A DNA stretch of 64,000 nucleotides from Cycas panzhihuaensis (taxonomy: Eukaryota > Plantae > Cycadophyta): the NCBI GenBank assembly GCA_023213395.1, contig CM041465.1, positions 138,391,741-138,455,740 on the forward strand. Reading direction: 5' to 3'. Below are positions 9,435 to 50,685 of this stretch, piece after piece (the first letter of the stretch is position 1; every line of letters begins with the position of its first letter). Below the pieces are notes generated by a model. That model was not told where the DNA came from, made no database searches, and saw only the letters and a program-made list of their open reading frames with translations. The position numbers were made by a program, and so were the translations under genes.

Positions 9435-12221
9435 TGTTTCCCGGCTACTGAGAATGGATACAAATAGGTCGACCTAGGTAGGCTTAGGTATACTTCTCCC
9501 TTTTCACTTGTATTATTTCTTTGGAGAGGTTGACAGAAGTGTTGCCTCGTTGTATGACTGCTTGCTTCATTTGTATGATCACTTTGCATTTGTTCCCTGT
9601 TCATGCTGCTTGTTATATTGTGAGCCTGTGACGACCCAGCAGGACCTGCGTTTCTGCAAGGTAGGCATCCTCATGGCACTTTATGACTCTCCGCGCTATC
9701 TCCACACCGCCTCGAGTTTTTGTTAGACTGTATGACCCGTTTATGCCTCGACATTAAGCTCCTAACACCTCATTTCTTGGACCTTTTGCCTGTTGATGTT
9801 TGCTTGCCTCTGTCCACATGCATTTTGGACTGTCTCAACCACCTATACAGGAGGGCCAACCCCTCCCAGGCCTGCCACATCACCTCCCAAAGCTCCTAGA
9901 ACCCAGAATTCTGCCATTCTGGCTTTCTAGTCCCGCACTGCTGTAAACTTAGCAGTACCGCGAAGTTTACCGCAGTACTGCAAAGTTTGCCATGGTGCGA
10001 CTATTGTCAGTTGTTTTTTAGAAAATTGCTATGGAAATTCTTGCGTTTCCCGCAGAATCGCCACATGGCCTCACGTCCACCTCAGCCCTATTCATGCCCT
10101 ATTCGCCCACTTAGAGCCAGGATGGGTATAAGTATCCAAACCCTCATTATTTTGAGGTCTTCTTAAATCATTTTTTTTGCTCTCTTAAACAACAGTTCCT
10201 ACTACAACTTCTACTCTCCTTCTCTTCCTTCTATAGGTGTACTTGCAAGCCTGTGTTTCCTGCAACCTCAGGCCAGGATCCACCTACAACTACTTGCTTC
10301 CACGATGGGAAGCCTCTCTCCAGGTTTTATCAAGCAATTTTAGTGTTGATTCTTCTCCAACTCACCCAGCAAGTGTCCCTTTCGGTTGTCCATTGGAATC
10401 TCTCCTAAATACCCTTGTAGGGGTCCTCTTCTCCGCTGATAGCAGCCCCAGATCTACCGGATATCCGCCCAGCAGGTCTTCCAAACCCTTTTCTTCTAGA
10501 TTTATGGTAAGTTACCTCCATATTGGACCTACTTCTTGTCTTGTTTGCCTGTTTCCTTCAGGTTTCACCATAGCAAGATTTGTTTCTATTATATTTGGCT
10601 TGTTGCTTTCCGGCTCTACCTTTCTCTTCGCTAGTTTTCTTCGAGGGAGCAGCGAGAGAAGAGTCACAAGGTTGGGTGAAGAGAGCAAGATGGGGCAGCC
10701 GACTTTTCAGTCCTTCTCTCCAAGGGTAATCCCTTTCCACCTTCTCTTCTCTTGCTCTATGCTCTTCTTGGGATAATTAGGAGTGATTAAGCCCTAGGCC
10801 TGCGTTGGATTATCAGCATATACAGCCTCTCGCTATGCTGATTCCAGGCCTGCTCGCCTCTTATTTGGACCCCTATAGTGTCCCTCAGGTTATTGGGTAT
10901 CCCTTAATATCATTGGCAAGGGTTGTGCACTGGATTGCTGCCCATAGCAACTCTGTGTCTTGCATATTTCCCCAACGCTTCGTTACCCTTTTCTCTGCAT
11001 CTCTTGGTTGTCCTTAGTTGTCTTTACCATTACCTTGTTGTGCTTGAGAGTTATGTGGAGAACCCATTAGAGGGTTAGCCATCATGAGGCTTCCCTTACT
11101 CCATTTTTGCTTGATGTTTATCCTTGCTTGAGAGAGGGTTTTAGAGCTTATTGTACCAACTATTTTTCCTAACACTCTAACATAAGTATCACATATATAC
11201 TTGCATATACATAGTTTATCTTTTGCAGCCCCTTCTCGGAAGGGATAAGTCCATGCATGTGTAGGTTGTCGTGGTGCTCTTGTAAAGGTATAAAGCGTTC
11301 GGATCTGGGTAAGGTCTACCATTTTGTTCTTTACTTTGGCTTCTTTCCTTTTTGCTTTATTTTCATAAAGGGGAAGGTAAGGGAGCCCCCACCATTCACG
11401 TCAAGACTTGGTTACACATCCGTGGATTGACGCATGGACGTACGTTACACGTGGGTGAGGTCCCCCATCGACCACTACATCTTCCAAGTACATACATCCT
11501 TCCTCTAACTCTCGTTTTCCCTTTCTTACTTTTGTTTAGGATATATGTGTTAGTTAAATAAGTCACACATAAAAGTAAAAGGAGAAACAGTATCTTTTAT
11601 TTATGCTTGTATATTTGTACATCGTATACTCAACCCTCATAGGAAAAGAACCTATAGCAAACTCACCCTTCCCTTTTCCTTTTCTTGCAAAGCCTAGCTT
11701 ACCCTTTCGGTTCATTCCACTTTGGATTGTTTGCTTGCATATGTGACACCTATTCCCGTTTCCTTTCCTGTTTCCTTTTCGAATCGTTAGGGGAAACTTT
11801 AGTTTAGTTATCCCATTCTCTTTTCTCTCTCCTCCTCTTGGCCTTATTTGCTTGGTCAAATAACCAAGAGGAACCCGGCCACATCATAGGCTATCGCCTA
11901 CCTTATCCCTGCTCGTTTCCCTCCATCATAGGGAAATCTTTGAGGACTCCTCTCTTCCCCTTCCGACCATCCAAGGGTGGGAGGATCTTCCTCTTGAGTT
12001 TATTCGGGCTACCTTTCTTGTTTTCCCTCTTTCTCTCTTCGATAGAAGACCACCCCAAGGTAATTGGGTATCATCCGCAGGTCCCAAACTCTTGCTTCGG
12101 TGCATGGGGTGCCCTGCGTGATACTTACTTTGCTTGTAGGTTTTCACCCGCACCCTCGATATCACCATCGACCATCATCATTCCTACCAAGCTTAGTGAT
12201 TATCCCATAAATGCATATCCA
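9435..12221 (+). repeat. Tat 5' LTR
   Basis: Colinear with 23674-26460. TATA-like TATAAG at 10127. Confidence 0.95.
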
Positions 12222-12477
12222 CTGGTGACTATACTGGGGACTTGTCAGTAAGGGAGCTAGTTCCTATCTCTTTCTATTGATACTATTACCTTTTAGTGGT
12301 CTCCTCCACTTCATCTCCTTTGTTGGACAAACCCCAACACGCATGCCTTGCATCCCTTTCCTTCTTCTAAAGTGTTGGTAAGTGTTGTATGCGACGCTTT
12401 TTACGCCGCCTACGTGGTTTGTCTTCTTTCAATATCCTAGGTATTGTCTTCTTTCATCGTCGAATTATGATTCGAAA

Positions 12478-15400
12478 ATGGAAGGGTACCCTTCCAATTG
12501 GGCCTATCATGCTTTTGCTTCGGGAGCTCATGAGTTCCCCGCATCCATTCTAGGATCCACTCAAGATGGTGACGATCCTATTTACTACCTGGGTGACCAA
12601 CGTCACCCACTAGACACCCATCCTTCTACTCATGCGGTAGAAGGCTCATCTCCTTTTGAGATCCACCACCTAGTTGGTGATTCTTATGAGGAGCGCCCTA
12701 AGGGGTCTACTTCATTTGAGGTCCCATCTACCTCTTATTATCATGTGGATACTCCTCCTGCTGATGTGGTTGAAGCACTTAGTGAGTGCTTTCGAGCTGT
12801 TCGTCTTCAATCGCGTTCTAGATGGTTTGAAGATGTTTTACGTGGTGGAGCGCCTTCTTCATCCACTCCTGTCCCACCTCCTTCATCCGCATCCACACCT
12901 CCCACAACGAGTAACCTTTTTATGCCTACACATTCGTCACGCTCCATCCCTACACCTACTTTGGGGACGCATGTTGCACCTTCTATCCCTCATCATGGTC
13001 CTAGTTCTTCGGAACCCTCTCGTGGTATGTCTTTCTCCTAGCTTGGGGTTAGCATACCTTTCCCAAGTCAAAATAGCATGCCACCTCCTAACGTGGCGTA
13101 TACATTTCTTAGTAGGCCTAAAGGCCCTACTAATGTTACTATCACTAGTCATGCATGTGGGACCCGCTCCCACGTATCCTCCAAACCAATCCAATGGTTC
13201 TTCTCTTTACATATCCCCAGGTTATACTTCTCAACCTTGGGGGCAGGGTAAAGGGAATTATATTCTAGCTTACGGGGTAGACCCGCTACATACATATGGG
13301 GTTGCACCACCCACGAGTGGCCGATATGGACAAAACCCAATTCCACACCCTTCCTTTCCTCCATCCTGCATAGCTCCTTATGCTGCACCTTTGCAAGGAA
13401 TCCCAACTTCCCTCCAAGACACTTACCCTCAAGCCCCTTTCCAGCATGGGACGCTCCCTCAAGGAGGGATGGGTTTACCACCCCCATCCATTCCTTATTC
13501 ATTACCTCCTACATTGCTTGTCGATCCTACGGTCCAGGCAAGGTCACGTCCCTTTATGGATTATAGATCGACACCATTATCTGTTGAGGCATTAAGAACC
13601 AACCTACCACCTCATCCTCCCGAAGTTCCTAAGTTTGACAGAACTTCATCACAAGACCCAACAGAGCACGTCCGTAGTTTCTCTATGGCATGTATTGATT
13701 GCTAGGCCTATAATCACATCCTAATGAAATTATTTCCATGATCCTTACAAGGCGATGCCCTTAAGTGGTTTTATCACCTACCAGCTCATTCCATTTTCTC
13801 GTTCCAGCAACTTGTGGACGAGTTCATCAATTATTTTGATGTTACTCGTCTATTCGAAAGTGGAATGAAATCCCTTCTTTCGCTCAAATAAGGGCACGAT
13901 GAGATGAATTGTGACTTTATGCGGCGATTTCATGACCTTCTTCATTCCACTAAGGCTACTTTACCTGAGGAATTGAAGAGGGATCTCTTCATTAATGCAC
14001 TTCTCCCTGAAGTCCATGTAGAAGTCCTTAAGATGGGGGCGACTACATGCGACTCTGCTATCGCAAAGTGCTTAGCACTTGAGGCTATTGAGATCCAGGC
14101 TGGACTCAAGAAGCCTCTCAAGCCCTCACAACGTCATGAGGTACCACCTCAAACTAAAGAGACCAAACCACAATAATCCACTAAGTCCTCTTCCCATCCG
14201 ACTGAGAAGACCTTAGATCTGCTCACCTCTGCCATATATTCATTCGAATGTACGATGAAGGAACTTAAACTGCAAGCTCCTTCATCACCTACTTCCAACA
14301 AACAAATCCAGAAAGCTAATCAAGCTTCCTTCCCTAAGAACGGTAACGCCCAATCCTCTCAAGCGAGGAAGATAGATTCCTCACTTGAAAAGAAGTGGTG
14401 TTCCATTCATGGGGAGTGTTTTCATGACGAGTCACGTTGTAGGGCCTAGCATCCCAGGGATTCCCCTTAATGTGACTCATCCCCTAAATAGGCCTCAAGG
14501 CCAACCTTGACCAACTGGTCCATAAGGATCCATTCCCTGAACATGGGGAACATGATTGTAATGCTCAACCCAAAAATAACTAGAACCGGGGAAGATCCCT
14601 GAATTCTCGTCCTTCCCACGATAAAGGAAAGGGCACTCGGGATTCATCTTCTTCTTCACGTTCCCCTCACTCACGTACTCCTTCACCTTCGCAGTCCCGG
14701 AACAAGGGAAATAAGGTAATCCAGATGCTTGAGGCTGCTCCTTTATATGCCTTTACTCAGTCTTAAGCCACTAAAGAGGCAGTTGGTGCCTCTTCTTCTG
14801 CTCCACACTCTGATCCTCTTCTGGAAACCTCCCTTTCGGAAGTCCCATTATGTCCTAAGGCCATTCCTATATGTCCTGGTCATTACGATTTTCGAAGGGT
14901 GCTTATCCAACCTACTGTGAAGGGTAAGCCTTTCTTTATCGTTGATGAGCTCCATACTATCGCTGTGGGAATGTCCTTGATGGATGTTTTGAGGAATTGT
15001 CCCAAATAACGGACTCTCCTTTTGGAAGCTTTAGGATCGAATGGTGTGCCCATCCACACTTTGGGTGTTACTCAAAGCCATGAGCTTGTCATTTCCTTTG
15101 ACCCTAAAGACCTTCCCCCTGCATGTGAAAGGGAATGCCAATGGAACTTCCCATTTACCATCACCATTGACACACTTGACTATACTCTGTGAATGACCGT
15201 TGTCGACAACAGTTATTCCGTGAATGCCATGCCCTTGCGTGTTATGCAAGAGCTTGGCATTTCTACTTTGGAACCTGTTCCATGGCGATGCTAAAGCTAT
15301 GATGGTAATGAAAAGACTCCATTGGGATCTATTTCGATCCCACTTACTCTCAAGGGTAAGACTGTCCTCACTGACATTGTAGTCCTTGACGTTGACGTCA

Positions 15401-18400
15401 ACTACAATCTTCTCTTGGGTCGACCATGGCTTGATCAGATGGGAGCTATGTGTTCGACCCGCTGGAGGCAACTCAAGTTTGTCCATGATGGACGGATGAG
15501 GGTTGTTTCCTGCGAACGCCTACCTATTAAGCAAACTCGTCTGATTAACCAAGCGAGCCAAGGCCCTTCTACTCACACCTCAGCTTGCTCCATCGGCATA
15601 CCTGATCCATCCCACATTGAAGAAGATCACGCACCTTCTTCCTCTAGTCTTATGCGCTTTGCTCCTATCAGTGTTGGGAGTTATGGGTACCTTACCTCGT
15701 TTAGCGACGATGAGTCCCATGATGAGGATGAGGGCTTTCCTCACCCCATTTCTTTCCTCCATACTAGTAGGATGCACCCTTCTTGTTCTAGGTCCTAACC
15801 TAGAACCCCTCTCGTTGGTGAGACTAGTCACCCCTTTGTATCATATATCGTTGCACGCTTTGACCCACCAGTCGCTGGTTCTTCTTCTTCATCACCCCCT
15901 GCAAGTAATGGTTTCAAGGAACTGCCTTTTGCTCCTTCCGAGGAGCCCCTTCCTAGCTCTCTCCTAGAGTCTTCTGAGGAGGTTAGATAGCCTGATGACC
16001 ACCACGGTCCCGTTGTTCCCACTTCCTCCAACACTTCATCTATTCAGAGTAAGGTCATCCATGGGGTGGATTACTTCGAAGATGATGAAGCCTTGCTTGA
16101 GCACCTAGTGGGCTCCGTGCCCAACTTTTCTTCTGATCACCATAGGCTTGGCCACTAGAAGATTCTGGCGATTGGGTCCACACTCACTGACCTAGTTCCA
16201 TCCCCTATTCCACCTCTTCCTATTGACCTTGCCCCTCTCCATTTCGAGGAGAGGAATGCCATGTGCATGGGGGTGACCCAGGACATAGTCTTAGCCCCTG
16301 GCAAGGTCATTAAGGTAGGGGCAGAATGCTCTCCTAATGAAGTAAGGGAATATTCCCTTTTGTTCCTGGAGTTCCGGGATGTCTTTGCATAGGATTATTT
16401 TGACATGAATGGAATCGATCCCTCCATTATCACCCATAATCTCACTACCATTCTTGGTGCTTGACCCGTGCACTAGAAGCAGCATCTTCTCCACCCTAAA
16501 CTCTCAGCCACTGTCAAGATAGAGGTTGAGAAGCTTTTGGATGCTAGACTTATTACTTCTATCGACTACCCTAAATGGGTATCCAACATTATTCCCATTG
16601 CTAAAAAGAACGTGACCATCCGGATATGTATTGATTTCCGTGATATTAACAATGCATGCCCTAAAGATAACTTTCCACTCCCCTTCATCAATCAAATCAT
16701 TGATCGAACTACTAGATTTGAAGTTATGTCCTTGATGGACGGCTTCTCCAGTTATAATCAAATTCAGATATCTCCTAAAGACTGCCATAAGATAGCCTTC
16801 ACTACCCCGTGGGGTACCTTTGCCTACAAGGCAATGCCCTTTGGCCTTAAAAATATAGGCGTTCCTTACCAAAGAGCAATGCACTTTATTTTCCATGACC
16901 TCATTGACAACACATTAGAGGTCTTTATGGATGATGTGATGGGCCTGTCATGTGTCAAGGCCCATCATCCCTCCGACTTGCGGGCTATCTTCACGTAATG
17001 CCGTAAGTACCATGTAAGCCTAAACCTGCTCAAATGTGTGTTTGCCGTTACTTCTGTCAAACTCCTTGGATTTCTTATGTCAAAACAAGGAATTCAGATT
17101 GACCCCGACAAGGTCAAGGCAATCCTTGATATGTCGCCTCCTATAACCTAATGACAGATCAAGTTGTTTCTAGGTAGGCTCAGTTTCCTCAGGCACTTCC
17201 TGGCAGACTTCGCTGTAAGCGCCAAACACCTAACAAACCTATTGAAGAAGGGAGCTCTATTTGTTTGGTCTGATAAGGCCCAACAGGCCTTCGAAGGACT
17301 TAAGGAAGCCCTTGCTTCTGCTCCTACGTTGGCATCCCCTTGTTTCGATAGGCCCTTCATTCTCTATACCTCAGTGATTGATGAGTCCCTATGCACTATG
17401 TTGGCTTAGGAGGACGACTCAAGAGTTGAGAGAGTCATTTACTTTATCAGTCGCACCCTTATGGCTGCCGAACTCAACTACTCTCTGGCCGAGAAGGAGT
17501 GTCTCTCCTAAGTCCACACGACCAAGAAGTTTAGACATTACTTGCTTGGTAACACCACCAAGGTGATCGTCTAGTCTGATCCCTTGCAATATCTACTTAC
17601 TCGTTCAGACCTAACGGGTAGGGCTAGCCGTTGGGCTGTCCTACTTTAGGAGTTCGATCTTTGTATCATCAAAAGGAAATTGAAGAAAGGGATGGTAGTG
17701 GCTGAGCAGCTCGCAGATGCCCCTATCCCTAACTCGCTTGATACCCTTGTTGACGATTCCCTTCCTAATGAGTCTATCTTGACTATTCAGGACGTCTCTC
17801 TCCATTTACTCATTGACAATGAGTGGTATGGTGACATTGTGCGATATCTCACACAACAGTAGTACCACCCTGAAGCTAGTAGTAAGGTTAGATCTCGTAT
17901 CTGGACTTCTGCTAGGCAATACTTCCTCATGGACGAAGTATTGTACAAGAGGTCTTTCGATTGGATCCTCCTCCGCTGCGTCGTCACCAACGAAGTAGAC
18001 CAAATACTCTGTGAATGTCACCATGGTATTTGCGGGGGCCAATCTATAGCCCAAAGCATCCTCCGCATGGGTTGCTATTGGCCGTCCCTCTTCAAGGACA
18101 CCCATGCTTTTGCCTTGAGGTGCCAGTGATGCCAGGAACACGCTAACATCTCCCATGTGCCTTCTGAGGCCCTTCACCCTATCATATCTCTGTGGCCTTT
18201 CACTCAATGAGGTCTAGACCTCATCGGGGCTATCTCCCCACCTTCCTCGTCGCAACACAAGTTTATATTGACTACTATGGAATACTTTACTAAATGGGCG
18301 AAGGCCATCCCTCTAGTTACTACCCTAGGTAAGATGATAGCTACCTTCATTTACCAGTATATCATTTACTGCTTCGGGATTCCTGATGTGCTGATTACTG

Positions 18401-19056
18401 ACAACAGAATCCCCTTTTGTAACAAGGAGATGGATGAGCTTTGTGAGAAGTTTAAAATCTCTCACAAAACTTCCTCTCCTTACTACCCCCAGGCAAATGG
18501 TCAAGTAGAGTCGTTCAACAAGACTCTCGTTAACATTTTAAAGAAAATTGTCACTCAGTCTCAAAGAGACTGGCACCTTCAGCTCCCTTTTGCTTTGTGG
18601 GCTTACCGTACCTATGTTCGTTCTGCCACAGGAATGACCACGTTCTCCCTAGTTTACAGTACCGAGGCGGTACTCTTGTTGGAAGTGGAGATTCCCTCCT
18701 TGCGAGTTTCTCCTTAGTGTCTCGTCGATGAGGAGTCGATTCGTCAAGCTCGCCTCCTGGACCTCGAAGCTTTGGATGAGAGACGTTTAGCTGCCTACCA
18801 AGCTAACCTCGCATCCAAAGCTCGCTCACAAAGGACCTACGATAAACACCTTTGTTCTCGTCCTTTGCTTCCCATGGACCATGTCCTCAAATTGAAGTAT
18901 CTTCATGATCGCTTGGCCAAATTCAGGCCCAAATGGGTTGGCCCCTTTGTCGTCATCGAGAACCTCAGTAACTGCGCCTATAGGATCACCACCTTGGAGG
19001 CTCTAGAGTTTGAAAAAGCCGTAAACGAGAAATTCCTTAAGAAATTCTACTCGTGA
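12478..19056 (+). pseudogene. Tat gag-pol (GAG, PR, RT, RH, INT), interrupted by stops and frameshifts
   Basis: GAG: PEVPKFD...DPTEHV and WCSIH-x4-H-x4-C knuckle. PR: VVDNSYSVNAMP and YNLLLGRPWL. RT: ICIDFRDINNACPKD, DGFSSYNQI, FMDD. Degenerate RH: FILYTSVID. INT: ECHHGICGG, YFTKW, ITDN, SSPYYPQANGQVE, KFRPKWVGPF. Confidence 0.95.
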
Positions 19057-19689
19057 CCTCGTCGTCACCTTATTCATGCTCTGAAATAAGCCTAAACTAC
19101 CATCTTAAGTTCGTTTCCATTCCTCCTAGCCACGGGTGGAATGATGACTTAGGATGGCCTCTTCTATTTCCTTCTGGTTCCTCCTGCAAAACCCTCATTC
19201 CCATTTTCCTTGGGACCTTGTCCTCCTATTTGGGCATCCCCTAGTTAGGATGATGCTCTAAAGTATTGTCACTCCCCTCTTGCTCGATATTTCCTTTGCA
19301 TATCCCACTATGCTCCCATGTGGACATGCGTGTTGCCCTATTTCCTAACCCCACATATGTTTATCACAACTACTCATGGTGGTCATGTGTGCTCCTATTA
19401 GGTATATGGCCCTACATGAAAGGAAATATGCACAACCTAAACAAATATCATAACATAAAACTCATATAGTAATCAGCTCAAAATGCAACCACGCATATCC
19501 TCGTGCATCCGTACACCCTTACACACACATAAACATGTAAACAAAATATACACATCATCATATATCAAAATGGGATACCAGTCACCCCGTCTATATACAT
19601 CAAAAATCATGTGTCATGTCATACATATAGTGTGATACATCATCTATGGGAAGTTAGTGTCCTTGTAGGGGGGGTACAATCATGTGGCT

Positions 19690-21642
19690 ATATATGGTGG
19701 CCCCCTGGAGGTTCGTGCTTTCCCTTGTCAAAATCATATGTACTATCCTACTGCTGCCCCGCCCCTAAGGCATCATCTCCTGGTCGATGTGATCTCTCTC
19801 CTAGGGACCACATCCCTCCGAGACTCCTCCTCAGTCTCTACGAGCTCCCTGCCTCGCTCCCCTCATCTCGTGGCCTCCTCGGGGTCACCGCTAGCGTATG
19901 AGTCTGTGTCCTGCTCCGCGCCAACCTCGATGCCATATCCTCTATCAGTTAATTGTATTGGGCATGGATACGATCCTGCTCCATCTCTATGAGGTGGAGC
20001 CTCTCCTCCATCCCCCAGAGTTGCTCCTCCATCACTGCTAGCTGGATATGGCTCCCCATATCCCCTCTGGCTCCTCCCTAAGCCTCCAATACCTGCACCC
20101 GACTCTGTAGACCGTCCCTCTCAGATCGGATGGTGTCCATATCAGCCTACTAATGTCTCGCACGTGCCTTGTGCTCTTGGGACTCTATTATCTATATATC
20201 CCTCACCCGTATCAATGGGGTGAATGCTACCGTGTGACCACCTATCGATCTAGGCTCATCTCCTTCCTGGATGGGAGGTTGTCCCTCTACGTAGGCCTAA
20301 GGGAAAATCTCTCGGACTACTGCCTCTACCAGCCTCTGGATGTCCACTATGCCTACAACCCAACATGCCACGTATAAATCCATGTCCATATAAATATCAA
20401 ACCAAAATCAAACTATGTATGTATCTAGCAATCAAACAACGATAAGAAATGATCATGTCTCACCTGGTGTGGTTGTCAGCTCCTCGACTTAGGCTACTGC
20501 CTCTCCCTTTGGTGCTCCGCCAGCTGCTGGTACCTCCTCCTCTAGTACCTCTTATGCCATGGCCTCAGCTCCTAGAGCATCCCTCCTCTCTACGGCTAGT
20601 GCTTCTACTACCTCTCCAAATCTCCTGACGATCCGTAGCCTATGGGCTCGTGTCACTGGGCCTCTACCCTCGTCTGCAGCTCCTGATGGGCTTGGCTCTC
20701 CACCTGCAGCCCCGGACGGACCTGCCTCTCCTACAACTCATGATGGGCCAGCCCCATCACCTCCATCACTGCCCCCATCATCTCTTAGGGGCACTCCTGC
20801 TCCTCCTACCTCGTCATCACTATCCCACCTCACTGCCCTATACAGATCTGCTATGTAATCTGTCATGGTGAGGAGGTCTAATGATGTGGCCTCCACTGAG
20901 CGACGGACATGAGCCTGGTCCTCGGTCCCTCTGAGCCTAGTCTACCACCTATATACCATCGGGGCCCACTCTGCAATAGGGCATAGTCCCCTCGTCGGTG
21001 CCACTGCTCTAAAGTAGTCGAAGAACCAACACTGCAATAACGTGCTATACGAGAGTCCTCCTTTGCCCGCTATCCTAATAGCGTCTAGCTGTGCGATGAG
21101 ATTTGTCGCTATCAGAGTGGACCAGTCCATCCCCTCTCTCGCCTCGCATCAGCGTACCGTGTCCATCCATCCTCCTAGTTTGTCCCTATAATTCTGTTTC
21201 TGGGAGATCCGAAATAGAATGCATAGTGTGATCAACTTCCTCACTCGAGGAACCCCTGACATAACCATGGTCTAGAGAGGAATCTCTTGCCTCTCCCATC
21301 TGTCCAAACCTATAAAGTATGTGGACGCCTCCATGTGTGCTGCCTCATTCTTTGGCAAGACTCTAGTGCCACGGCCTCGGCCGGTACTCCCAATATCCTC
21401 CTGATATCTCCTGACGTTACTAATACATCTCCCACCTGGGGTAGGTGGAAGACATGCCTCCTCCTGTCTCAGTGCGATATAATATCTATCAACAACCACT
21501 AGTCTGACATATACAGAGGCGTCCTCATGACCTTCAGCAGGCCACACCTCCGTAGGATCTCCTGGTCCTTCCTAGTCATCATCTCAATGAAGCTCAGCAT
21601 TGCCATCCCAATGTTTTCGCGGTTCTCTACCACTATCACAAT
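19690..21642 (-). pseudogene. Antisense plant mobile domain (PMD, aminotransferase-like) gene inside the Tat element, with a coiled-coil-like tail
   Basis: WLLIDIISH*DRRRHVFHLPQVGDVLVTSGDIRRILGVP (PMD N-motif) and DWSTLIATNLIAQL...GGLSYSTLLQCWFFDYF (PMD C-motif). A GT-AG intron at 20463-20353 joins ELTTTPG/IVDIQRLVE in frame. The 3' end is approximate. Confidence 0.8.
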
Positions 21643-21784
21643 CTGCAAAACACCACCAAACTAGTCAGCACTTGGCCCACACTTGCTCTCTATCCTCTAG
21701 ACTATCTCTCAGCCTTGCCTGATCGAGATTTGGGGCTCCTCGGGCCCCCATCTCCTTTTTTCTGCAGTTCTGCCTTCACACCAT

Positions 21785-21814
21785 GCCAAACTCCGCGGTA
21801 CCGCGGAGTTTGGC
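21785..21814. promoter_or_regulatory. Perfect 30-bp palindrome (candidate cis-element)
   Basis: GCCAAACTCCGCGGTACCGCGGAGTTTGGC is its own reverse complement. A related copy lies in the LTR at 9943-9970. The palindrome is certain; a regulatory role is inferred. Confidence 0.55.
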
Positions 21815-22305
21815 TCAAGTCCATGGCATCGGGCCCCGCAAAGAAAGATCACAAGACCGCGATCTTTGCCGCGGTGCAAATGGCACCCCCCCAAAAGGGG
21901 GGGGTTTCTTGCCCAAAAAATCCAAAAATTCTTCTAGTGGGCCACAGTCAGGCCCACTAGGACTATGGCTGCCTAATGCCCCAGTCCTGCCTCTTTTTGG
22001 GTCTAATTTAAACTCCGGGAGGCCTTTTCTTGCCCATACGGGGCTTAAAGATCTACATAAAAATCATAAAAAATAGTAAACTTTGACATGAGAGATGGGT
22101 TGGGTTTTTTATGATCCACTCACTAGATCTGGCCCAGCGCTCGCCATCTCGTCTCTATGATCCCAATGTCTGTCCTCTAGCCCTGATCCAACGATCCAAT
22201 CTCTTTCTGCGTGCCTCTGAAGTCGGATAGCGCTTCGCTGCGTAAGGGAATGGCTCTGGATTTGTTCGAGAGCCCGTGAAAATGAATCTTATTTTCATCA
22301 ATTTT

Positions 22306-22316
22306 CCTTATATAGG
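22306..22316 (-). promoter_or_regulatory. Candidate TATA box for the antisense PMD transcript
   Basis: Minus strand reads CCTATATAAGG, upstream of a GTGAGT donor (22123) and a TTTTGCAG acceptor (21643). Confidence 0.4.
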
Positions 22317-22857
22317 CGAGGACCCCGACAGGCACTGTCTCCATTTTCGCTCTCATGACAGCCCTTTGGATCGTCTCTTACCCCTAATCATCTTTTCCTT
22401 CTGGCCCTGTCTCCCATTGTGCTCCCATAGCCTTCATCTCGCTTTTCCTTGTGAGTGCATTTATGGCACCCTACCAATGCATTTTTTCACAGGGTCCCTT
22501 TTGTCTCGTTTGCGTGTCACTCCCGTGTATGCCCGAGTTTATACTTGTTTAGCTTATTTTGCCATCCTAGACTCATTTTTGCAGCTCATTCCTACCCCTA
22601 GGGTCTCCAAAGGGAATGCTCCCTCTATTCAGAGCCATTCTTTGCTTCCCAAAGCAACCTTTGGCACCCCAATGTGCCCTTTTGCCGCCCACTTCTAGCC
22701 AGTGGTTGAATCGCCTACTCTTGTCCTTGGGTAGCCTCATTGCTAGGTCCTCCTACCCTTCACAGCCATTTATTACTTGCCATACGAGTCTCTTTGTGAT
22801 TCGACTCTTATATTATTGCACATTTTCCTCTACCGAGACTTTTTTCTGTCATCATCT

Positions 22858-23235
22858 ATGTCTCTCTTCATCTTTACCAACGGTGGAAGCCGCAGTAATC
22901 CCGGACCTTCTGTCGTCGCATGGATTCTTCGCAGCTCTTCCAGACATGACTTCCTGCATTCTAGAATCTTTCTCCCTGAGGCCACCAATAACGAAGCCGA
23001 GTACATGGCCGTTATCAAGGCCCTAACTGATGCGCTCCATTTCCATCGCGAATCGGTTGTTCTTCTTTACAACTCCTAGGTTGTGGTGTCCCATCTCACC
23101 TAGGTTTACCAGGTGTGATACCCTTACTTGAAAGCCCTCGCTTTGACCACCAAGTCTCTTTTAGCTTGTTTCCAGTATGTCGACATCTGACACATTCCTT
23201 GGGCCCTCAATATTGAGGTAGATAGTCTTGTTCAC
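22858..23235 (+). pseudogene. Additional archaeal-type RNase H (aRH) domain downstream of integrase
   Basis: FIFTNGGSRSNPGPS...EATNNEAEYMAVIKALTDAL...YNS*VVV...HIPWALNIEVDSL, matching RNase HI DGGSRGNPG / TNNxAEY / DSxLVV / HIPRxxNxxAD. Confidence 0.88.
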
Positions 23236-23673
23236 CTCATAGATAGTCTTGTTCACCTCATCCTTGAGCACCGCCTTCCTCTTCTTGCTGACCGTCCCTG
23301 AGACTTGCCCGGTTGCTCTGTCACCCAAGTCCCAGGCCATCGTGCACATCACCTTGCAATCCATTCGCACCTCCAAAAGCTAGCTGCTAATGAGGTTAAA
23401 CTATGGCGACTACCAGGTTTGCTCATTCACCCTTTTTACCTGACTTTATCATGCACATCTCTTTGCACTTTTGTGATGGAGGCAGTCCCTATGTTGTCTT
23501 CACCTCTATCCTCGTATCCACACGTTCCGCCACGACACTCGTCGGTACCCTTGACTTCTGTTATGATTATGATTTATATATGTACATACACATGTGCTAC
23601 TAACAGTTGTGTTGCCAGCATTCGCCATCGCACCATGCTCCTGAGCGGTGAGGCTCTGCTGCCAAGGGGGCAG

Positions 23674-26460
23674 TGTTTCCCAGCTACTCGGAATGGATAA
23701 GGATAGGTCAACCTAGTTAGGCTCAAGTATACTTCTCCCTTTTCACTTGTACTATTTCTTTGGAAAGGTTGACAAAAGTGTTGCCTCGTTGCATGACTGC
23801 TTGCTTCATTTATATGATCACTTTACATTTGTTGCCTGTTCATGCTGCTTGTCATATTGTGAGCCTATGACGACCCAGTGGGACCTACCTTTCCGCAAGG
23901 TAGGCATTCCCATGGCACTTTACGACTCTCCGCGATGTCTCCACACCGCCTTGAGTTTCTATTAGACTGTATGTCCCATTCATCCCTCGACCTTGAGCTC
24001 CTAGCACCTCATTTCTGGGACCTTTTGCCTGTTGATGTTTGCTTGCCTCTGTCCACGTGCATTTTGGACTATCTCAGCCACTTAGACAGGAGGGCCAGCC
24101 CCTCCCAGGCCTGCCACATCACCTCCCAAAGCTCCTGGAACCTAAAATTGCCATTTGGCTTTTACGGTCCCACACCATCAGTAAACTTAGTGAGTGCTGA
24201 AGTTTCTTGGCGGTACCATGAGGTTTGCCATGGTGCGACTATTATCAGTTATTTTTTAAAAAACTGCTATGGCAATTCTCGCATTTCTTGTGGAATCGCC
24301 ACGTGGCCTCGCATCCGCCTTAGCCCTATTCGTGCCATATTCACCTACTTAAGGTTGGGATGGGTATAAGTATCCAAACCCTCATCATTTTGAGGGCTTC
24401 TTAGATCATTTTTTTCACTCTCTTACATAATAGTTCCTGCTGCAACTTCTGCTCTCCTTCTCTTCCTGTTATAGGTGTACTTGTAGGCCTATGTTTCCTG
24501 TAACCTCAGGCTAGGATCTACCTGCAACTACTTACTTCCATGGTAGGAAGCCTCTCTCTAAGTTTTATCAAGCAATTTTGGTGTTGATTCTTCTCCAACT
24601 CACCCAGCAAGTGTCACTTTGGACAGTCCATTGGAATCTCTCCTGCAAACCCTTGCACGGGTCCTCTTCTCCACTGATAGCAAGCCCAAATCTGCCATAT
24701 ATCTGCCCAGTAGATCTTCCGAACTATTTTCTTCTGGATTTATGGTAAGTTACCTCCATATTGGACCTACTTCTTGTCTTGTTTGCCTGTTTCCTTCAGG
24801 TTTCACCATAGCAAGATTTGTTTCCATTATATTTGGCTCGTTGCTTTCTGGCTCTACCTTTCTCTCCACTAGTTTTCTTCGAGGGAGTAGCGAGAGAATA
24901 GTCACAAGGTTGAGTGAAGAGAGCAAGGCGAGGCAGCCCCCCTTTTCAGTCCTTCTCTCCAAGGGTAATCCCTTCCCACCTTCTCTTCTCTTGCTCCATG
25001 CTCTTCTTGGGATTATTAGGAGTGATTGAGCCTTAGGCCTGCGCTGGATTATCAGCATATGCAGCCTCTTGCTGCGTTGATTCTAGGACTGCTCGCCTTT
25101 TGTTTGGACCCCCGTAGTGTCCCTCGGGTTGTTGGGTATCCCTTGATATCATTGGCAAGGGTTGTGCACCGGATTGCTGCCCATAGCAACTCTATGTCTT
25201 GCATATTTCCCCAATGCTTCGTTACCCTTTTCTTTGCATCTCTTGGTTGTCCTTAGTTGTCTTTACCATTACCTTGCTGTGCTTGAGAGTTGTGTGGAAA
25301 ACCCAGCAGAGGGTTAGCCATCCTGAGGCTTCCCTTACTCCATTTTTGCTTGATGTTTATCCTTGCTTGAGAGAGGGTTTTAGAGCTTGTTGCAGTAACT
25401 ATTTTTCCTAACACTCTAACATAAGTATCACATATATACTTGCATATACATAGTTTATCTTTTGTAGCCCCTTCTCAGAAGGGATAAGTCCATGCATGTG
25501 CAGGTTGTCGTGGTGCTCTTGCGAAGGTATAAAGCGTTCGGATCTGGGTAAGGTCTACCATTTTGTTCTTTGCTTTGGCTTCTTTCCTTTTTGCTTTCTT
25601 TTCATAAAGGGGAAGGTAAGGGAGCCCCCACCATTCACGTCAAGACTTGGTTACGCATCCATGGATTGACGCAAGGACGTACGTTGCACGTGGGTGAGGT
25701 CCCCCATCGGCCGCTACATCTTCCGGGTATGTACATCCTTCCTCTAACTCTCGTTTTTCCTTTCTTACTTTTGTTTAGGATCTATGTGTTAGTTAAATAG
25801 GTCACACATAAAAGTAAAAGGGAAAACAGTATATTTTATTTACATTTGTATATTTGTACATTGTATACTCAACCCTCATAGCAAAAGGACCTATAGGAAA
25901 CTCACCCTTCCCTTTTCCTTTTCTTGCAAAGCCTAGCTTGCCCTTTTGGTTCATTCCACTTGGGATTGTTTACTTGTATATGTGACACCTATTCCCATTT
26001 CCTTTCCTGTTTTCTTTTCAAATCGTTAAGGGAAACTTTGGTTTAGTTGTCCCATTCTCTTTTCTCTCTCATCCTCTTGGCCTTATTTGCTTGGTTAAAT
26101 AACCAAGAGGAACCTGGCCACATCGTAAGCTATCGCCTACCTTGTTCCCGCTCGTTTCCCTCCATCATAAGGAAACCTTTGAGGACTCTTTTCTTCCCCT
26201 TCCGGCCACCCAAGGGTGGGAGGATCTTCCTCTCGAGTTTATCTGGGCTACCTTTCTTGTTTTCCCTCTTTCTCTCTTCGATAAAGGACCACCCCAAGGT
26301 AATTGGGTATCATCCGCAGGTCCCAAACTCTTGCTCTGGTGCATGAGGCACCCTGCGTGATACTTACTTTGCTTGTAGGTTTTCACCCGCACCCTCAATA
26401 TCACCATCGACCATCATCATTCCTACCAAGCTTAGCGATTATCCCGTAGACGCGCATCCA
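23674..26460 (+). repeat. Tat 3' LTR
   Basis: Starts TGTTTCCCAGCTACT after the PPT and ends CATCCA. Same length as the 5' LTR. Confidence 0.95.
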
Positions 26461-29383
26461 AATACCAAGATAATAAATAATCCATTGTCTAAGAATTTAA
26501 AGTAAACACAATGATCATACTCACTTCTTTTAAAATTTTAGCTCTCCATGAAGGTATTAAACTTCCTATACCATTGCTTGGTACAATGATTTCCTGAGCC
26601 TATAAATAACTCTTTTCTTGTCATCCTATACAAACCCTTATGGTTGATCCATATAGATCTCTTTATCTAAATCTCCATATAGAAATGTTATTTTTACATC
26701 TAACTACTCAAACTCTAAATCAAGAGAAGCTATCAATGCTAACAAAACCCAAATTGAAACAAGTTTGATAACTGGTGAAAAGATCTCATGAAAGTCAATA
26801 CTTACTTTCGATATAAAACCTTTAGCTACCAGTCTTACTCTATATTTATCAATCTTTCTATCAACATCTATTTTCTTCTTAAAAACCCACCTGCAACCAA
26901 CAATCTTCTAACCATGTGGAAGTTCTACCAAGTCCCATGAATTATTTTCTTCAAAGCATCTAATTCTTCCTGCATAACCCTCTTCCACTTCTCACTATGG
27001 ATATCATCTACTACTTCCTCATTAAATGTAGGCTCACCATTATTAGAAACCAAAGTAATAGAAATAGAAGGGTGTACCTATCAGGTGGATGACTTATTTA
27101 TATAGACCTTCTAACAGTTGGTGGAGGAGTGTCCATATACTCCTATAAATCTGTTGTAGATTCATCTTGAAAAAAGTCTTCTTACTCTTCTATTTTTAAA
27201 AATGGCTAGGTCTCAAGCTTGACCTGTTGATGTTCAAATTTCTACTCCTATTTCACTTCAACTTCTACACTATCTAATTTTATAAAGGGAGATTCATCAA
27301 ACATAACATCTCTATTAATAATCATTTTGTAGGTAGTGGGATCCCATAACCTATATCCCTTCACACTATCTCTATCACCATAACTAACAAAGATATATCT
27401 CTTAGATTTTGGGTCTAACTTTTATTAGTCAAGGCATAAGCATCATAACCAAAAACTTTCAAATTTGAATAGTCACATACATGTCCAGTCTATACCTCTT
27501 TAGGAATCTTATAGTCTATTACAAGTGATAGGGACCTATTTACCAAATAATAAGTTATCTAGATATCTTCTGCCCATAAGCCCTGCTCCACTCCTACATT
27601 ACTTAGCATGCTTCTTGCTCTTTCCAAGAGTGTCATATTCATGTACTCAGTTATGTCATTCTATTGTGGAGTATAACTAGTGGTCTTATACCTTTCAATC
27701 CTAGCTTTTCTGCAATAGTTCTCAAACTCCAAGGAGTTGAACTCACCTCCATTATCAGTTCTTAAATATTTGATTGACCTGTCAATGCTCTTCTTAACTA
27801 GAGCCTTACACTGCTTAAACACACTAAATACTTTAGATTTCTTTTTTAAAAAATAGACCCATACTTTTATAGAGCAATCATCTATAAATGTGATAAAGTA
27901 CAATGATCCTCTATAAGATATTAAAGGGGCTAGTTCCCACACATCTGAATATACATAATCCAGAACACGTTTACTAGTGTAACTCCCTACTTTAAACCTG
28001 AGTCTATACTACTTTAAAAAAATCTAATGTTTACAAAAAGTCAAATCTGAAAGCTGTAAATTATGAAGCAACTTACAGTTTATCAGCATCTTAAGTTCTC
28101 TCTCACTCATGTGCCCAAGTCTCTGATGCCATAACTGAGCTAGATCTTTTGCAGTCTTTAATGTTGTAGCTACATGGCTGCCATATATAGTTCCCACTAA
28201 AATGTAAAGGTTTCCTTTCTTTAAGGCTTTCATAACAACCAAGGCGCCCTTTGACACCTTTAAGACTCCTTCATAATCTGTGTACTTATGACCACCAGAA
28301 TCTAGTTCATACAAAGAAATTATATTCCTTTTTAGATCAAGTACATGTCTAACTTTAGTTAATATTCTTACTATACCATTGAACATTTTAATTCTGATGC
28401 TACCAATGCCCATTGTTTTGTAGGAAACTTCATTTTCCATAAGCACATCACCACCATCAAGAGGTTGGTATAATGAGAACCAACTCTTATGTAGACACAT
28501 ATGGTGTGAAACACTTGAATATAATAATCAATCATGTTGATAATGGGAAATATTATAAGCAACCAAGACATCATCATTTGTACCTTGATTTGACTCCACA
28601 CGATTAGCCTCATTGGTAGGATCTTCATTTTTCTGGAACTTCTTTCTTTTATAACAATCCTTCTTGAGATGACATGTCTTATTATAGTGCCAATATCTGA
28701 GCTTACTCTTCTTGCCTTTTGACTTTGACCTTGATGTGTTCCTAGAGCTTTGTCCTCACTCAATCATTCTGCCTCTTGATGTCATAGCTTTTGGTGTGGA
28801 GGTTTCAAGACTGAACTGCCTTCTCACTTCTTCTATCAGCAAAGCACTTATAATAGAATCATAGTCTAATTCATCTATAATGCTAAAACTAATTGAGGTG
28901 ACAATATTATCCCAAGATTCTAGTAATGAATATAACAAGGTAACAACCTGACCATCCTCAATCGTGACATCGATACTAGCCAATTGACAAATAAAAGTAT
29001 TGAAAATATTTAAATGATCAATATTTTTGTACCTTCCTTCATCTGCAATGAGTACAACTACCTCTTCAAGTAGATTTGATTCGTCACTGATTTTGTCATA
29101 TACAAGCCTTCCAACTGGATCCGTAATCCTATTGTTGTCTACTCCCCTTCGATATTAAATAAAACTTCATCCACTAAGCATAATTGTATTGTGCTAGTAG
29201 CCCTTTTGTCTAGATCATCCCATTTGTCATCATTCATCCCCGCGGGTTTTTCAATTTGCCTACAAAAGCTTTGTACAAACCTTGTTATACCAGAAGATCA
29301 TACATTTTCAACTTCCACAACTCGAAGTTATTCTTGCTATTAAATTTCTCCACCTTGAACTTTACATTTGCCAATTTTACCAT
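26461..29383 (-). pseudogene. Copia gag-PR-INT-RT(N) (degenerate)
   Basis: MVKLANVKFKVEKFNSKNNFELWKLKM start, LWHQRLGHMSE, YFITFIDDCS, LRTDNGGEF, GCRWVFK and FSPV motifs. Confidence 0.92.
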
Positions 29384-36099: not shown

Positions 36100-39000
36100 A
36101 TGTGAATGCTTGAATGCTTAGGGGAGCCTAAGTATGCAACCATAGCATATTCATTAAAATTGGCCAATGAGCTCTTGATTCGACCACCTGAGAAGATGAT
36201 AATACATTAAGATAAACATAGTAGCCATCATAGTGCTAATGAAATTTACAGTGTTGAAAATAGTAAAGGGGATGGCCCCGTACTCAACTTTACTAGGAAG
36301 TCCATGGCTATATGAGATTAAACACCCTCAAAATTAGAACAACCAAATATTTACCTATGTTGGAGGAAGTGAAAAACACAATAAAGGTGGTTCCAAATGA
36401 TGTTTCAAGTACAATGATCACAAGTAAGAGTACCACCTCATCCATCAATGAAATAAATGTATATCGAACAATAGAAAAGATGATGACTATAAGCAACCCT
36501 ATAAGGATAAACTAAATAGCTTTATAGAACCTCATCTTAAGTTAGACTCTGATGGTGAAAAAACCAATAACTTTATTTCAAACTAGTTAGAAAGGGCATA
36601 TGAAGTATCCTACCCCTCTTTTTATTATACTTGTTTTTAAAAAATTATAATTTTAACAATGTAATAAGTAAAAGTAATGATTATTTGAGTATTATTAGTA
36701 GTGATATTAGTAGTCTTACTTTAGATAGTATAATTAGTAGTGTAGATAATGATTATATGAATAGGGATTTAGAAATAATAATATAGCCAAAAAAAGAAAA
36801 TGAAATAAATGATTCTAAACCTACTATGAATAAACAAAATGATTATTTGATTAAAGAATTGATTATTTAAGCTAATCTATTTTCTAATCCTATTTCCAAC
36901 ATAAACCCTAACCCTACGCCAAACCCCAATTCCCCTCGAAAGGATGGAACCAATAATAATTCCTTCCTAAACCCCAACCCTCTACTTTCCCGTGAATCAA
37001 GGACAAGAGAGAGAGAGCCCTATCTCATTCTGATCCCTCGTACCTTCCCCTAGGGCCTCCAACCCTAATCCCCCCAAACCTCCCTCTATGGCCTCCATCT
37101 CTAGTGATTTCCAACCCTCCTATAGGGCTTGTAATCTTAATTCCCCTCTTTTTCCTTCTAAAGAAACCACCCCTAATACCCCCTTTATCCTTCCCTAGGG
37201 CTAATTTGAAAAGTGGTTTTAGCGTTAAGACTCCATCCTTCAAGTATAAGCTCAATACACCTGATAGTGACACAAATATAGAGTTTATTATCATTCTAGA
37301 AGTGGTCTTTATGTTTTGTGGAATGGATGATAATATAAGAAACTGCCATATCTAATGCATAGAGTATTAGGTTTGGAACTGAAGCTGTTGGGGGATTAAC
37401 ATTGTAATGACCCTTTAGGTACCAACCTAATGATGGTATGTAGCCTACCAACACACTTCAAATTAATCAAATTTGCAACACACATTTCAACTTTGTTTTG
37501 ATGACCAAGACTTAGGAAATATACCAACATTTTTAGTGGGTGACTACCTATGAAACTATCTCAGCATGTGTAAAACCTTCTTGAAATCTAAAGCATGCCT
37601 AGGAAAGATTGGGCCTATCTATTCTACTATACATTAGGTAAGACAAGTTAGAATTGATTATTAAGCAATGAGCATATTAGGGACGCTTTGGGGGATGAGT
37701 TGAAAAACTCATGTTCGAAAACTTTCGTATACAAATCTCCAAATATGACAATTAGTAAAATTTTAAATACATAAAAGGGTTAAGCATAGAAGTAGAAAAC
37801 TACAACCATAAGATATTGTCAATTATGATAATAGAGTAGAAAGAGGCAATCGAAGTGTATAGTAATGAGAAAGAAATAGTAACTCACTTTCATTTTTTTG
37901 GAAATGAATTATGAGAATCGAAGTATTGAGGAAATACCTAGTCATAAAATAAATGAGGAAAAAAAAGTGCAGTTTAAAGTTCTTGAGACTAAGAAGTTAA
38001 ATATCAAAGATAAAAATAATCTAAAAAACTCAACAATTAGAGATACCTATATAAGCATACAATTACTTAAGCCCAAACGCTCTTTAAAGAATTCAAAGAT
38101 GTATTCACACAATCTTACAAAGACTTTAAGGGCATTCCACTAGAGATAAGAGTGCACCACATCGACTTAATTGATAGAGCAAAATTAGTTAAGTAGAGAT
38201 GTTACTGCATGAATCCTAAATACAAGGAGGAGGTCAATGCTGAAATTAGCAAAATGTTATAAGTAAGTTACATTTACCAGATTAAATATAGTTATTAGCT
38301 CACCCAGCGGTGGTAATACCAACGAAAAACAGGAAGATTCAAGTATGTGCTAACTATCACTAATTAAATAAAGTAACAAAGAATTATAGCTTTCCCATCC
38401 CCTTCACAAAGGATGCTTTGGAAATAAAAGCTAGAGAAATGTATTCTTTTACATATGGTTTTAGTGGCTACAATCAAGTAAAGATTGCACTAGAAGATTA
38501 GGATAAGATGACATTCATCACTGAATGGGGCACATATAGGGTTATGCCATTTGAATTGATGAATGCCCTAGCCACTTTTCAATATACAGTTTTCAACATT
38601 TTCAAAAAAATAATTAGCAAGAAGGAAGTTGCATTCTTGGATGATTTTACTCTATATGGAATTATTAAGAATCACCTTAAGAACATTTCAGAGATGTTAC
38701 AAATAAACTATGTTTGATTCTAGAAATGTGTACTTTTATGGTGCCATTTGAAAATTTGTTATAATACATCAAGATTACTAATTGATCCTACTAAGGTATC
38801 TACGATATTAAACTTTTCCATTTCCCTCACCAAGAAACAATTGAAAGAATTTTTGGGATTAACCGAATGCTACCAAAGATTTATCAAAGGTTATGTTTAT
38901 ATCTCTAGGCCTCTGAAAGAATTGCTTAAAAAAGATAGTGAATAGGAATGAAAAGGTAAATAATATATGGTATTTGAAACTATTTGAAAAGATATACCAA

Positions 39001-49915: not shown

Positions 49916-50404
49916 TTGATGAAAAGGCAACAAATACTGCAGTCACTTCAAGACAACATCAGGACCCTTACAAAAATCAAAGATCTAAAACAGAAAATTT
50001 TAGAACAGCCATATTAGGAAATGAGTCCCTCAATCAACTAATATTTCTCAACAAATAACAAAATTTTCCAGTGACCTCTTGATGAAAAGGCAACAAGTAT
50101 TGCAATCACTTCAAGACAACATCAGGACACTTAAGAAAATCAAAGATCTAAAACAGAAAATTTTAGAACAGCCATATTAGGAAATGAGTCCCTCAATCAA
50201 CTAATGTTTCTCAACAAATAACAGAATTTTCCAGTGACCTCTTGATGAAAAGGCAACAAATACTGCAGTCACTTCAAGACAACATCAGGACCCTTATGAA
50301 AATCAAAGATCTAAAACAGAAAATTTTAAAACAGCCATTTTAGGAAATAAGTCCCTCAATCAACTAATATTTCTCAACAAATAACAAAATTTTCCAGTGA
50401 CCTC
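49916..50404. repeat. Three near-identical 163-bp tandem units downstream of CPN60
   Basis: TTGATGAAAAGGCAAC starts at 49916, 50079 and 50242. Confidence 0.95.
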
Positions 50405-50685
50405 TTGACCTCTTTGATTACATTTTCACCCCACAGACAGCTATCTTGAAGCAACTGCAAGGTGCTTCAATCGACAAGCCTTTTGGCCAGCTTGGACATA
50501 TAATCAAATGCTCAACTAGGGAAGAAGCGGTGGTATAATTAGCGTTACGTTCAAAATAAATATATCAAATCTAAATAACCTGCAGTAAACTAAATCCTAC
50601 TTTCCAACCATTGCCAACTAGGCCTCGTAACTGGGAGCCACACCAAACTAGAATGGCAGCACACCCAACTCAATAAAAGCCTCTC

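Follow-up and report, generated by a model that had tools for sequence, protein, structure and literature searches.

Can a long terminal repeat (LTR) retrotransposon carry, on the strand opposite to its gag and pol genes, a spliced gene of its own, and what might such a gene do for the element? This question is raised by a 64,000-nucleotide stretch of the Cycas panzhihuaensis genome (contig CM041465.1, positions 138,391,741 to 138,455,740; the whole stretch is hereafter called the window), in which a preliminary description had placed a complete, intron-containing antisense transcription unit for a PMD protein inside a Tat-type retrotransposon. In the reading that we prefer, and to which we give a probability of roughly 45%, the locus contains, in decayed form, a Tat antisense gene of three exons for a dimeric PMD-like DNA-binding protein that would bind a palindromic motif of the element and help to keep its promoters active. 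It is highly probable that the antisense gene is real and that its intron 2 is spliced in the family. What the locus and its relatives present is the layout of the gene, homologous coding fragments, a net loss of intron 2 in one related contig, an archaeal-type RNase H (aRH) lying head-to-head with the gene, and a palindrome that occurs in intron 1 and, decayed, in the 5' LTR (coordinates in Table 1).

An antisense gene with three predicted exons

The gene model consists of three exons on the minus strand, amounting to about 600 codons. The landmarks listed in the preliminary description (the TATA box, the donor GTGAGT at 22123, the acceptor at 21643, the linker, the 111-bp AT-rich GT-AG intron, the tail and the AT-rich end) were each found in place. 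TATATAA at 22314-22308 is the sole match to TATAWAW on either strand between 22100 and 22900. Besides its donor, intron 1 has a branch-point-like CTGAC at 21668 and the acceptor TTTTGCAG ending at 21643; because the ATG at 22147 sits 24 nt before the donor, the intron is in phase 0 and the ATG is in frame with the PMD-like exon 2. Intron 2 has a GC content of 33%, compared to 53-54% in the flanking exons, and contains in-frame stops. The E/A/G-rich linker carries a 30-nt tandem repeat (20674-20731), and the tail encoded by exon 3 shows a heptad pattern. The unit had been called complete, which is correct for its layout but not for this copy, as the copy is broken by 15 internal stops and one frameshift.

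To look for relatives we used phmmer against 1.84 billion representative proteins. The search gave 19 matches (best E 6e-33), all of them short open reading frame (ORF) fragments, and the ten that were looked up are single-member Logan clusters. All 19 fragments fall in the predicted frames, with identities of 33-75%. Seven of them map to exon 3 (50-63% identity), where the fragment P0003 ends at the same place as the model; another, P0005, is 58-73% identical and runs without a break across the frameshift of the window copy, which places that frameshift near 21,395-21,355. In the window copy itself, the frame of exon 2b holds 6 stops when 14.2 are expected by shuffling (p 0.0075), and the stop-poorness of exon 2a (p 0.096) and of exon 3 (p 0.29) is not significant alone in such shuffles. 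Moreover, 15 of 52 at-risk codons are now stops in the antisense gene, compared to 13 of 61 in pol (Fisher p 0.39), where decay amounts to 21 stops in 1385 codons. The stop load of the antisense gene is thus equal to that of pol, which fits a gene that was intact when the element inserted.

Splicing was examined in the contigs of a run (X1) that was assigned by its species label and is only presumed to be RNA. It has 139,402 contigs, of which 413 align to 12000-26500 (284 of them less than 90% alike), and 15 of the 29 joints within contigs were listed. One contig skips 119 bases and has 8 letters between, for a net loss of 111 exactly at intron 2. Because the GT-AG of intron 2 reads on the minus strand, this joint would, if X1 is RNA, stem from antisense transcription and splicing of a diverged copy; a DNA copy that lacks the intron could also have given rise to it. 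The relatives agree with the intron at both of its ends: all four that reach the end of exon 2 read G-E-T/I at the donor and meet a stop within 1-3 codons, and all three that start inside the intron match from the acceptor onward only, with the expected Gly in two of the three. We regard intron 2 as well supported. (Note that the depth of the X1 contigs is uneven, being 11-518 over 19260-24099, 0-4 over 24100-26500 and 0.4-19 over gag-pol, and says nothing on the rank of the genes or on transcript ends.)

The preliminary description had proposed that splice sites be followed across copies and that junctions be sought in reads. By these measures intron 2 stands, through its donor in four of four relatives and through one X1 contig, whereas intron 1 has its sequence signals and no joint among those listed. 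The absence of intron 2 from the contig of a relative, together with the conservation of its donor, supports the claim that a Tat-type element carries an antisense accessory gene. The associated claim, that antisense introns outlast retrotransposition, follows from the way in which retrotransposons are copied. Copying goes through sense RNA; the genomic RNA is the opposite strand to that of the antisense gene and never presents its splice sites, and the introns persist for this reason.

The identity of the encoded domain, given earlier as PMD, is weakly supported. In Pfam scans of the antisense gene and its relatives, PF10536 is the only family with E < 0.01. A profile hidden Markov model for this family, proposed earlier as the test of the translation, matches the 3' part of exon 2 in the window copy (E 0.004, 16.8 bits; the 5' part gave no match) and the 141-residue P0005 (E 1e-4, 22.1 bits, profile positions 38-179 of 347), the latter being the one fragment of the 19 with a PMD match. 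Only fragments were scanned, and the gathering cut-off of PF10536 is 34.9 bits; since both scores are under this cut-off, we call the gene PMD-like. A search of PDB sequences with the PMD-like protein gave no match, and the fold model that AlphaFold built from a 4-row alignment has a mean predicted local distance difference test (pLDDT) score of 39.6.

A solo RNase H beside the gene and a palindrome within it

Beyond the pol stop, at a distance of 3.8 kb, lies an aRH ORF that stands head-to-head with the antisense gene; 0.7 kb separate it from the gene start and about 550 bp from the TATA box. The polypurine tract (PPT) abuts the 3' LTR downstream of the aRH, and the aRH is therefore inside the element. 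Its best PDB matches are the RNases H1/H 4e19, 4h8k and 3u3g (E 8e-15 to 4e-13), and 155-residue RNase HI entries reach only E about 5e-4. In this copy, the Arg position of the aRH and two of its acidic catalytic positions are altered. The Pfam scan of the pol frames gave no RVT_3 match. A separate aRH ORF after the integrase is what defines TatIII/structure 3 in the 2023 and 2026 accounts; an aRH at the C-terminus of Pol, as described in 2015, is not what we find here, where pol stops near 19056. One X1 contig aligns at 22638-22906 as well as on the exon 1 side of the PMD-like gene; the order of PMD-like gene and aRH is therefore shared by one diverged relative at least.

Two further features were seen around the aRH. 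On the plus strand at 22451-22765 there is a GTGAG donor (22451) and a pyrimidine-rich, CAG acceptor-like site (22756-22765), a candidate intron in the 5' untranslated region (UTR) of aRH transcripts and a possible counterpart of intron 1. The aRH domain has at its C-terminal end an exact 21-nt tandem duplication (23219-23261), and the frame that follows stays open as far as the 3' LTR. Downstream of the aRH, another RNase H-like piece was considered and rejected (shuffle p 0.6-0.97).

The palindrome in intron 1 is perfect over 30 bp, and in 500 shuffles of the intron the longest palindrome was 18. The best match to it elsewhere in the 64 kb is the copy at 9942 in the 5' LTR, which including its flank is 25/31 identical. 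A 21/30 match was reached in 1 of 200 shuffles of the window and in 0 of 1000 shuffles of the LTR (p about 0.005), by an untuned test from which a degenerate pattern fitted to both sites was set aside; the palindrome was sought in the light of the published discussion of PMD motifs. The overlapping 18/30 copy is in the chance range, and the survival of the four CpGs of the palindrome is not significant (per-copy survival 0.55).

What the antisense gene might do

Host and transposon proteins with related domains act at DNA motifs. MAIL2 is associated with a palindromic motif and counteracts Polycomb, and its PMD-C domain resembles the DUF1985 domain of VANC (bioRxiv 2024.09.27.615353). VANC binds motifs in the introns and terminal non-coding regions of its own element, and these motifs form dense tandem arrays (PMC5735166); it has a predicted coiled coil for dimerisation and repeat-bearing variable regions (bioRxiv 2024.04.02.587720). 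The antisense gene shares with VANC, MAIN, MAIL1 and MAIL2 a conserved domain, a repeat-bearing variable region and a predicted coiled coil (PMC5735166, PMC5418596). As in the VANC systems, a motif of the element occurs in one of its own introns and in terminal non-coding DNA, here intron 1 and the 5' LTR, and as for MAIL2 the motif is a palindrome. The VANC-type systems differ in that they are DNA transposons or host PMD-C genes and that the motifs bound by VANC lack palindromic symmetry, are short and stand in dense arrays; the present system is known from its sequence.

The combination of a PMD-like domain, a repeat-bearing linker, a heptad tail and a palindrome in the gene's own intron and LTR leads us to favour a self-targeted activator or anti-silencer. 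Transcription would start from the internal TATA box, intron 1 as well as intron 2 would be spliced out, and the protein would dimerise via its coiled coil. The dimer may then bind the palindrome of the element in intron 1 and in the LTR, and such binding could, by analogy with VANC or MAIL1/2, protect the element from host silencing. The gap of about 0.55 kb between TATA box and aRH might serve as a two-way promoter, in which case a short mRNA of its own, with its end in the 3' LTR, would yield the aRH, and this enzyme could replace the RNase H lost through degeneration of the pol domain. The scheme can be generalized to Tat elements with a post-integrase aRH, which would then carry a two-way cassette. 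Its leftward product would be a spliced mRNA encoding a dimeric PMD protein, which would shield the element from silencing by binding a palindromic operator in its own intron and in the LTRs; its rightward product would be a short mRNA from which a free RNase H is made that would complement in trans the dead RNase H of pol. We judge this generalization doubtful. If true, the cassette would place a VANC counterpart in retrotransposons and explain how a solo aRH is expressed.

Several results weigh against the self-targeted activator. The intron 2 joint was seen in a single X1 contig, X1 is RNA only by guess, and none of the 19 protein fragments crosses a spliced junction. An intron 1 joint is absent among the X1 joints listed (15 of 29), and an X1 contig with a depth of 461 is continuous from exon 1 into intron 1; for these two reasons intron 1 is a prediction from sequence signals. 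The PF10536 scores of both the window copy and P0005 are below the gathering cut-off, and DUF1985, which marks VANC, is absent from the Pfam scans of the window frames and the relatives. In place of dense tandem arrays of the motif there are two overlapping copies in the 5' LTR and one in intron 1, and a tandem-repeat scan found no array of the palindrome motif. Enrichment of k-mers is only marginal, and the short cores of the palindrome, GTAC and CGCG, are presumably also sites for host factors. Finally, X1 contigs span the TATA region (joints 22133-22382 and 22347-22638), which genomic RNA or DNA could explain but a pair of short divergent mRNAs by itself would not, and no plus-strand TATAWAW was found upstream of the aRH between 22100 and 22900.

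It is quite conceivable that the gene is real and spliced and that its protein works at a different step, for example in integration targeting, nuclear import or particle structure, with the palindrome being a host-factor site or an RNA hairpin for packaging or dimerisation. In the literature examined, no function has been tested for the PMD-A proteins of retrotransposons, nuclear and regulatory roles have been proposed for antisense ORFs in general (PMC7264820), and intron 1 RNA folds strongly, as a chain of GC-rich hairpins (z -4.2) that contrasts with the AT-rich intron 2. The motif is found, however, also in the LTR, about 510 bp from its start and some 1.3 kb upstream of its TATA-like sites, which fits a role in DNA, and the host PMD proteins act at DNA motifs (bioRxiv 2024.09.27.615353).

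Alternatively, the aRH may not be a separate gene. The antisense unit might lie within a large sense-strand intron, or the aRH might be spliced to pol or gag and become part of a polyprotein. Consistent with this, the 2015 description has the aRH at the C-terminus of Pol (PMC4408406), ahead of the aRH the plus strand offers sites that resemble donors (22242, 22451) and acceptors (22482, 22756), and the context of the aRH ATG is weak. Such an arrangement is nevertheless improbable, given that pol stops near 19056, that the aRH has its own ATG at the start of the domain, that later surveys describe a separate or solo ORF (PMC10508981; PMC13468544), and that a joint from pol to aRH is absent among the X1 joints listed (15 of 29). 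Less probable still is that the PMD-like unit is a passive relic, a captured host gene or a nested mobile fragment, spliced now and then but of no use to the element, or that antisense RNA rather than protein matters: the window copy is dead, PMD occurs in host genes and Mutator-like elements too, and antisense RNA could act via double-stranded RNA silencing (PMC7264820), but 19 diverged fragments keep the frames and differ in intron sequence, the stop load matches that of pol, and an antisense PMD ORF is a trait of the TatIII lineage (PMC4408406).

The host element and its relation to known systems

The host of the gene is an old, 17.0-kb Ty3/gypsy insertion with the layout of TatIII or 'structure 3'. 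Comparison of the window with itself revealed two 2.8-kb repeats, 90.3% identical, as its LTRs; over 2776 sites they differ by 206 transitions and 44 transversions (Kimura two-parameter distance 0.098); they have the ends TG...CA, and are flanked by AATAT and AATAC, which match at four of five bases as a target-site duplication. The plus strand between them holds gag, reverse transcriptase, RNase H and integrase, all identified by Pfam scan and broken by stops (in pol, RVT_1 E 1.8e-18, RT_RNaseH E 1.1e-23 and rve E 1.3e-6). With the protease, which was placed by eye and position, these genes have the order that is characteristic of the OTA/Tat group of Ty3/gypsy, with a primer-binding site (PBS) as well as a PPT inside the LTRs; the additional aRH of that group is also inside the element, upstream of the PPT (RVT_3 E 1.7e-10). 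The usual Asp residues of the native RNase H of pol are absent by eye, in a copy that is itself decayed. The PBS-like sequence is putatively of the tRNA-Arg type. TatIII elements are described as being 12.7-17.3 kb in size, with a 5-bp target-site duplication and mostly a tRNA-Arg PBS.

Table 1. Features of the Tat-type element and its antisense gene, in window coordinates
Feature	Position	Strand	Remarks
5' LTR, 2.8 kb, TG...CA	9435..12221	+	self-comparison
Two overlapping decayed palindrome copies, 20-bp period, in 5' LTR	9942..9991	.	21/30 and 18/30 identical
PBS-like sequence	12223..12241	+	begins TGG, one base past LTR
gag, broken	12480..14600	+	PF03732 E 4.3e-7; stops, frame changes
pol, broken: protease-like region, reverse transcriptase, native RNase H, integrase	14550..19058	+	stop near 19056
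AT-rich 3' UTR, predicted 3' end	19430..19747	-	37% GC, 38% T over 19400-19689
Exon 3: conserved QPPI segment, coiled-coil-like tail, basic/acidic C-terminus; 7 internal stops	19748..20352	-	
Intron 2, 111 nt, GT-AG	20353..20463	-	
Exon 2: PMD-like domain and E/A/G-rich linker; 8 stops, one frameshift	20464..21642	-	
Intron 1, 481 nt, phase 0, predicted	21643..22123	-	
Perfect 30-bp GC-rich palindrome	21785..21814	.	longest perfect palindrome in window
Exon 1, ATG at 22147, predicted transcript start	22124..22285	-	
TATA box TATATAA	22308..22314	-	TATATA core readable on plus strand too
Solo aRH ORF	22858..23240	+	RVT_3 E 1.7e-10; ATG at domain start; 4 stops
PPT	23664..23673	+	immediately before 3' LTR
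More decayed palindrome array, in 3' LTR	24181-24229 (near)	.	17/30, chance range alone
3' LTR	23674..26460	+	self-comparison

The antisense unit is not a novelty as such, since an antisense PMD ORF is already known for gymnosperm Tat lineage III (PMC4408406). The element shares with this lineage an aRH downstream of the integrase and an antisense ORF, here PMD-like, in the 3' region; its size lies in the range described for the lineage, and its putative 5-bp target duplication matches at four of five bases (PMC4408406, PMC6317226). It departs from the 2015 description of TatIII, which has the aRH at the Pol C-terminus, the PMD ORF at the 3' terminus of the element, and a coiled coil only in later lineages (PMD plus coiled coil is described for Tat lineages IV and V; PMC4408406): the order here is integrase, stop, antisense PMD-like gene with a coiled-coil-like tail, solo aRH, PPT. 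In the text of PMC4408406, as far as available, the description of TatIII does not mention introns in the extra ORF. With the elements of Tat 'structure 3' (clusters Tat H of Pinaceae and Tat I of Cycas and Ginkgo) it has in common a separate post-integrase aRH and, as judged by eye in this decayed copy, a native RNase H without catalytic residues (PMC10508981, PMC13468544); PMD or extra ORFs gave 0 matches in the main text of the 2026 paper (PMC13468544) and in the supplement of the 2023 paper, and none in the text of the latter (PMC10508981). This layout matches lineages that have been described only from gymnosperms (PMC4408406, PMC10508981). In Ogre (PMD), Retand (TRP28) and maize Grande (gene23), too, an antisense ORF follows pol and precedes the 3' LTR (PMC7264820, PMC11963269), but these elements, unlike the present one, are from angiosperms and have the aRH inside pol. 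Grande gene23 has its own internal antisense promoter and a nuclear product (PMC7264820), and multi-exonic antisense transcripts have been reported, as non-coding, for Arabidopsis copia. The word 'intron' does not occur in PMC7264820 or PMC11963269, the former being a 2020 review that calls for a search for spliced antisense transcripts.

Antisense PMD ORFs and solo aRH ORFs are thus known, and the splicing, the gene order and the shared motif were not found in the literature searched. More specifically, that literature does not report introns for any extra ORF with a PMD in plants, the order integrase, antisense PMD and solo aRH, or a shared operator; figures, some supplements and Steinbauerova 2011 may hold them. 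The locus matters in that PMD proteins of retrotransposons are widespread and are kin of host chromatin regulators, and it supplies a full exon model, a candidate promoter shared with the aRH and a candidate binding site for an antisense gene that ORF scans would miss or split. An aRH in a separate ORF is known from Pinaceae, Cycas and Ginkgo, and how it works there was left open in 2023 (PMC10508981); a 2026 paper treats the post-integrase, solo aRH as controversial (PMC13468544). The head-to-head layout offers a testable answer to how a solo aRH is expressed.

Searches for further members of the family by other routes returned little. Word-based protein searches gave none among 5284 candidates, and none of 49 with the aRH as query; scans of loci gave none among 10 candidates in viral contigs and, with the PMD alignment as query, none among 94 candidates in metagenomes. 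A metagenome scan with the integrase gave 3 of 227 candidates, at 35-39% identity, and none of the three informs on this family: L001 and L002 are short and have no aRH or PMD match, and L003 has its aRH within pol. L003 (7300-10823 of its metagenome contig) is a Tat-type pol with the aRH between RNase H and integrase, a retrovirus-like layout.

The surroundings of the element contain other repeats. It is bracketed symmetrically by two pairs of direct repeats, 7756-8411/29463-30113 and 5087-5440/31872-32235 (82% and 84% identical), and the Tat element appears to be nested inside one or two older elements. The minus-strand frames beside it look like a putative copia-type polyprotein remnant. 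On the plus strand, 63367-64000 is decayed and 45-61% similar over short segments to the N-terminal region of the element's gag, and may mark where another Tat-type element begins, one that has no matching LTR. A further decayed gypsy-type pol, 21-36% identical to that of the element, lies on the plus strand at 38080-40414, and a 163-bp unit is present in three tandem copies, 95-97% identical, at 49916-50408.

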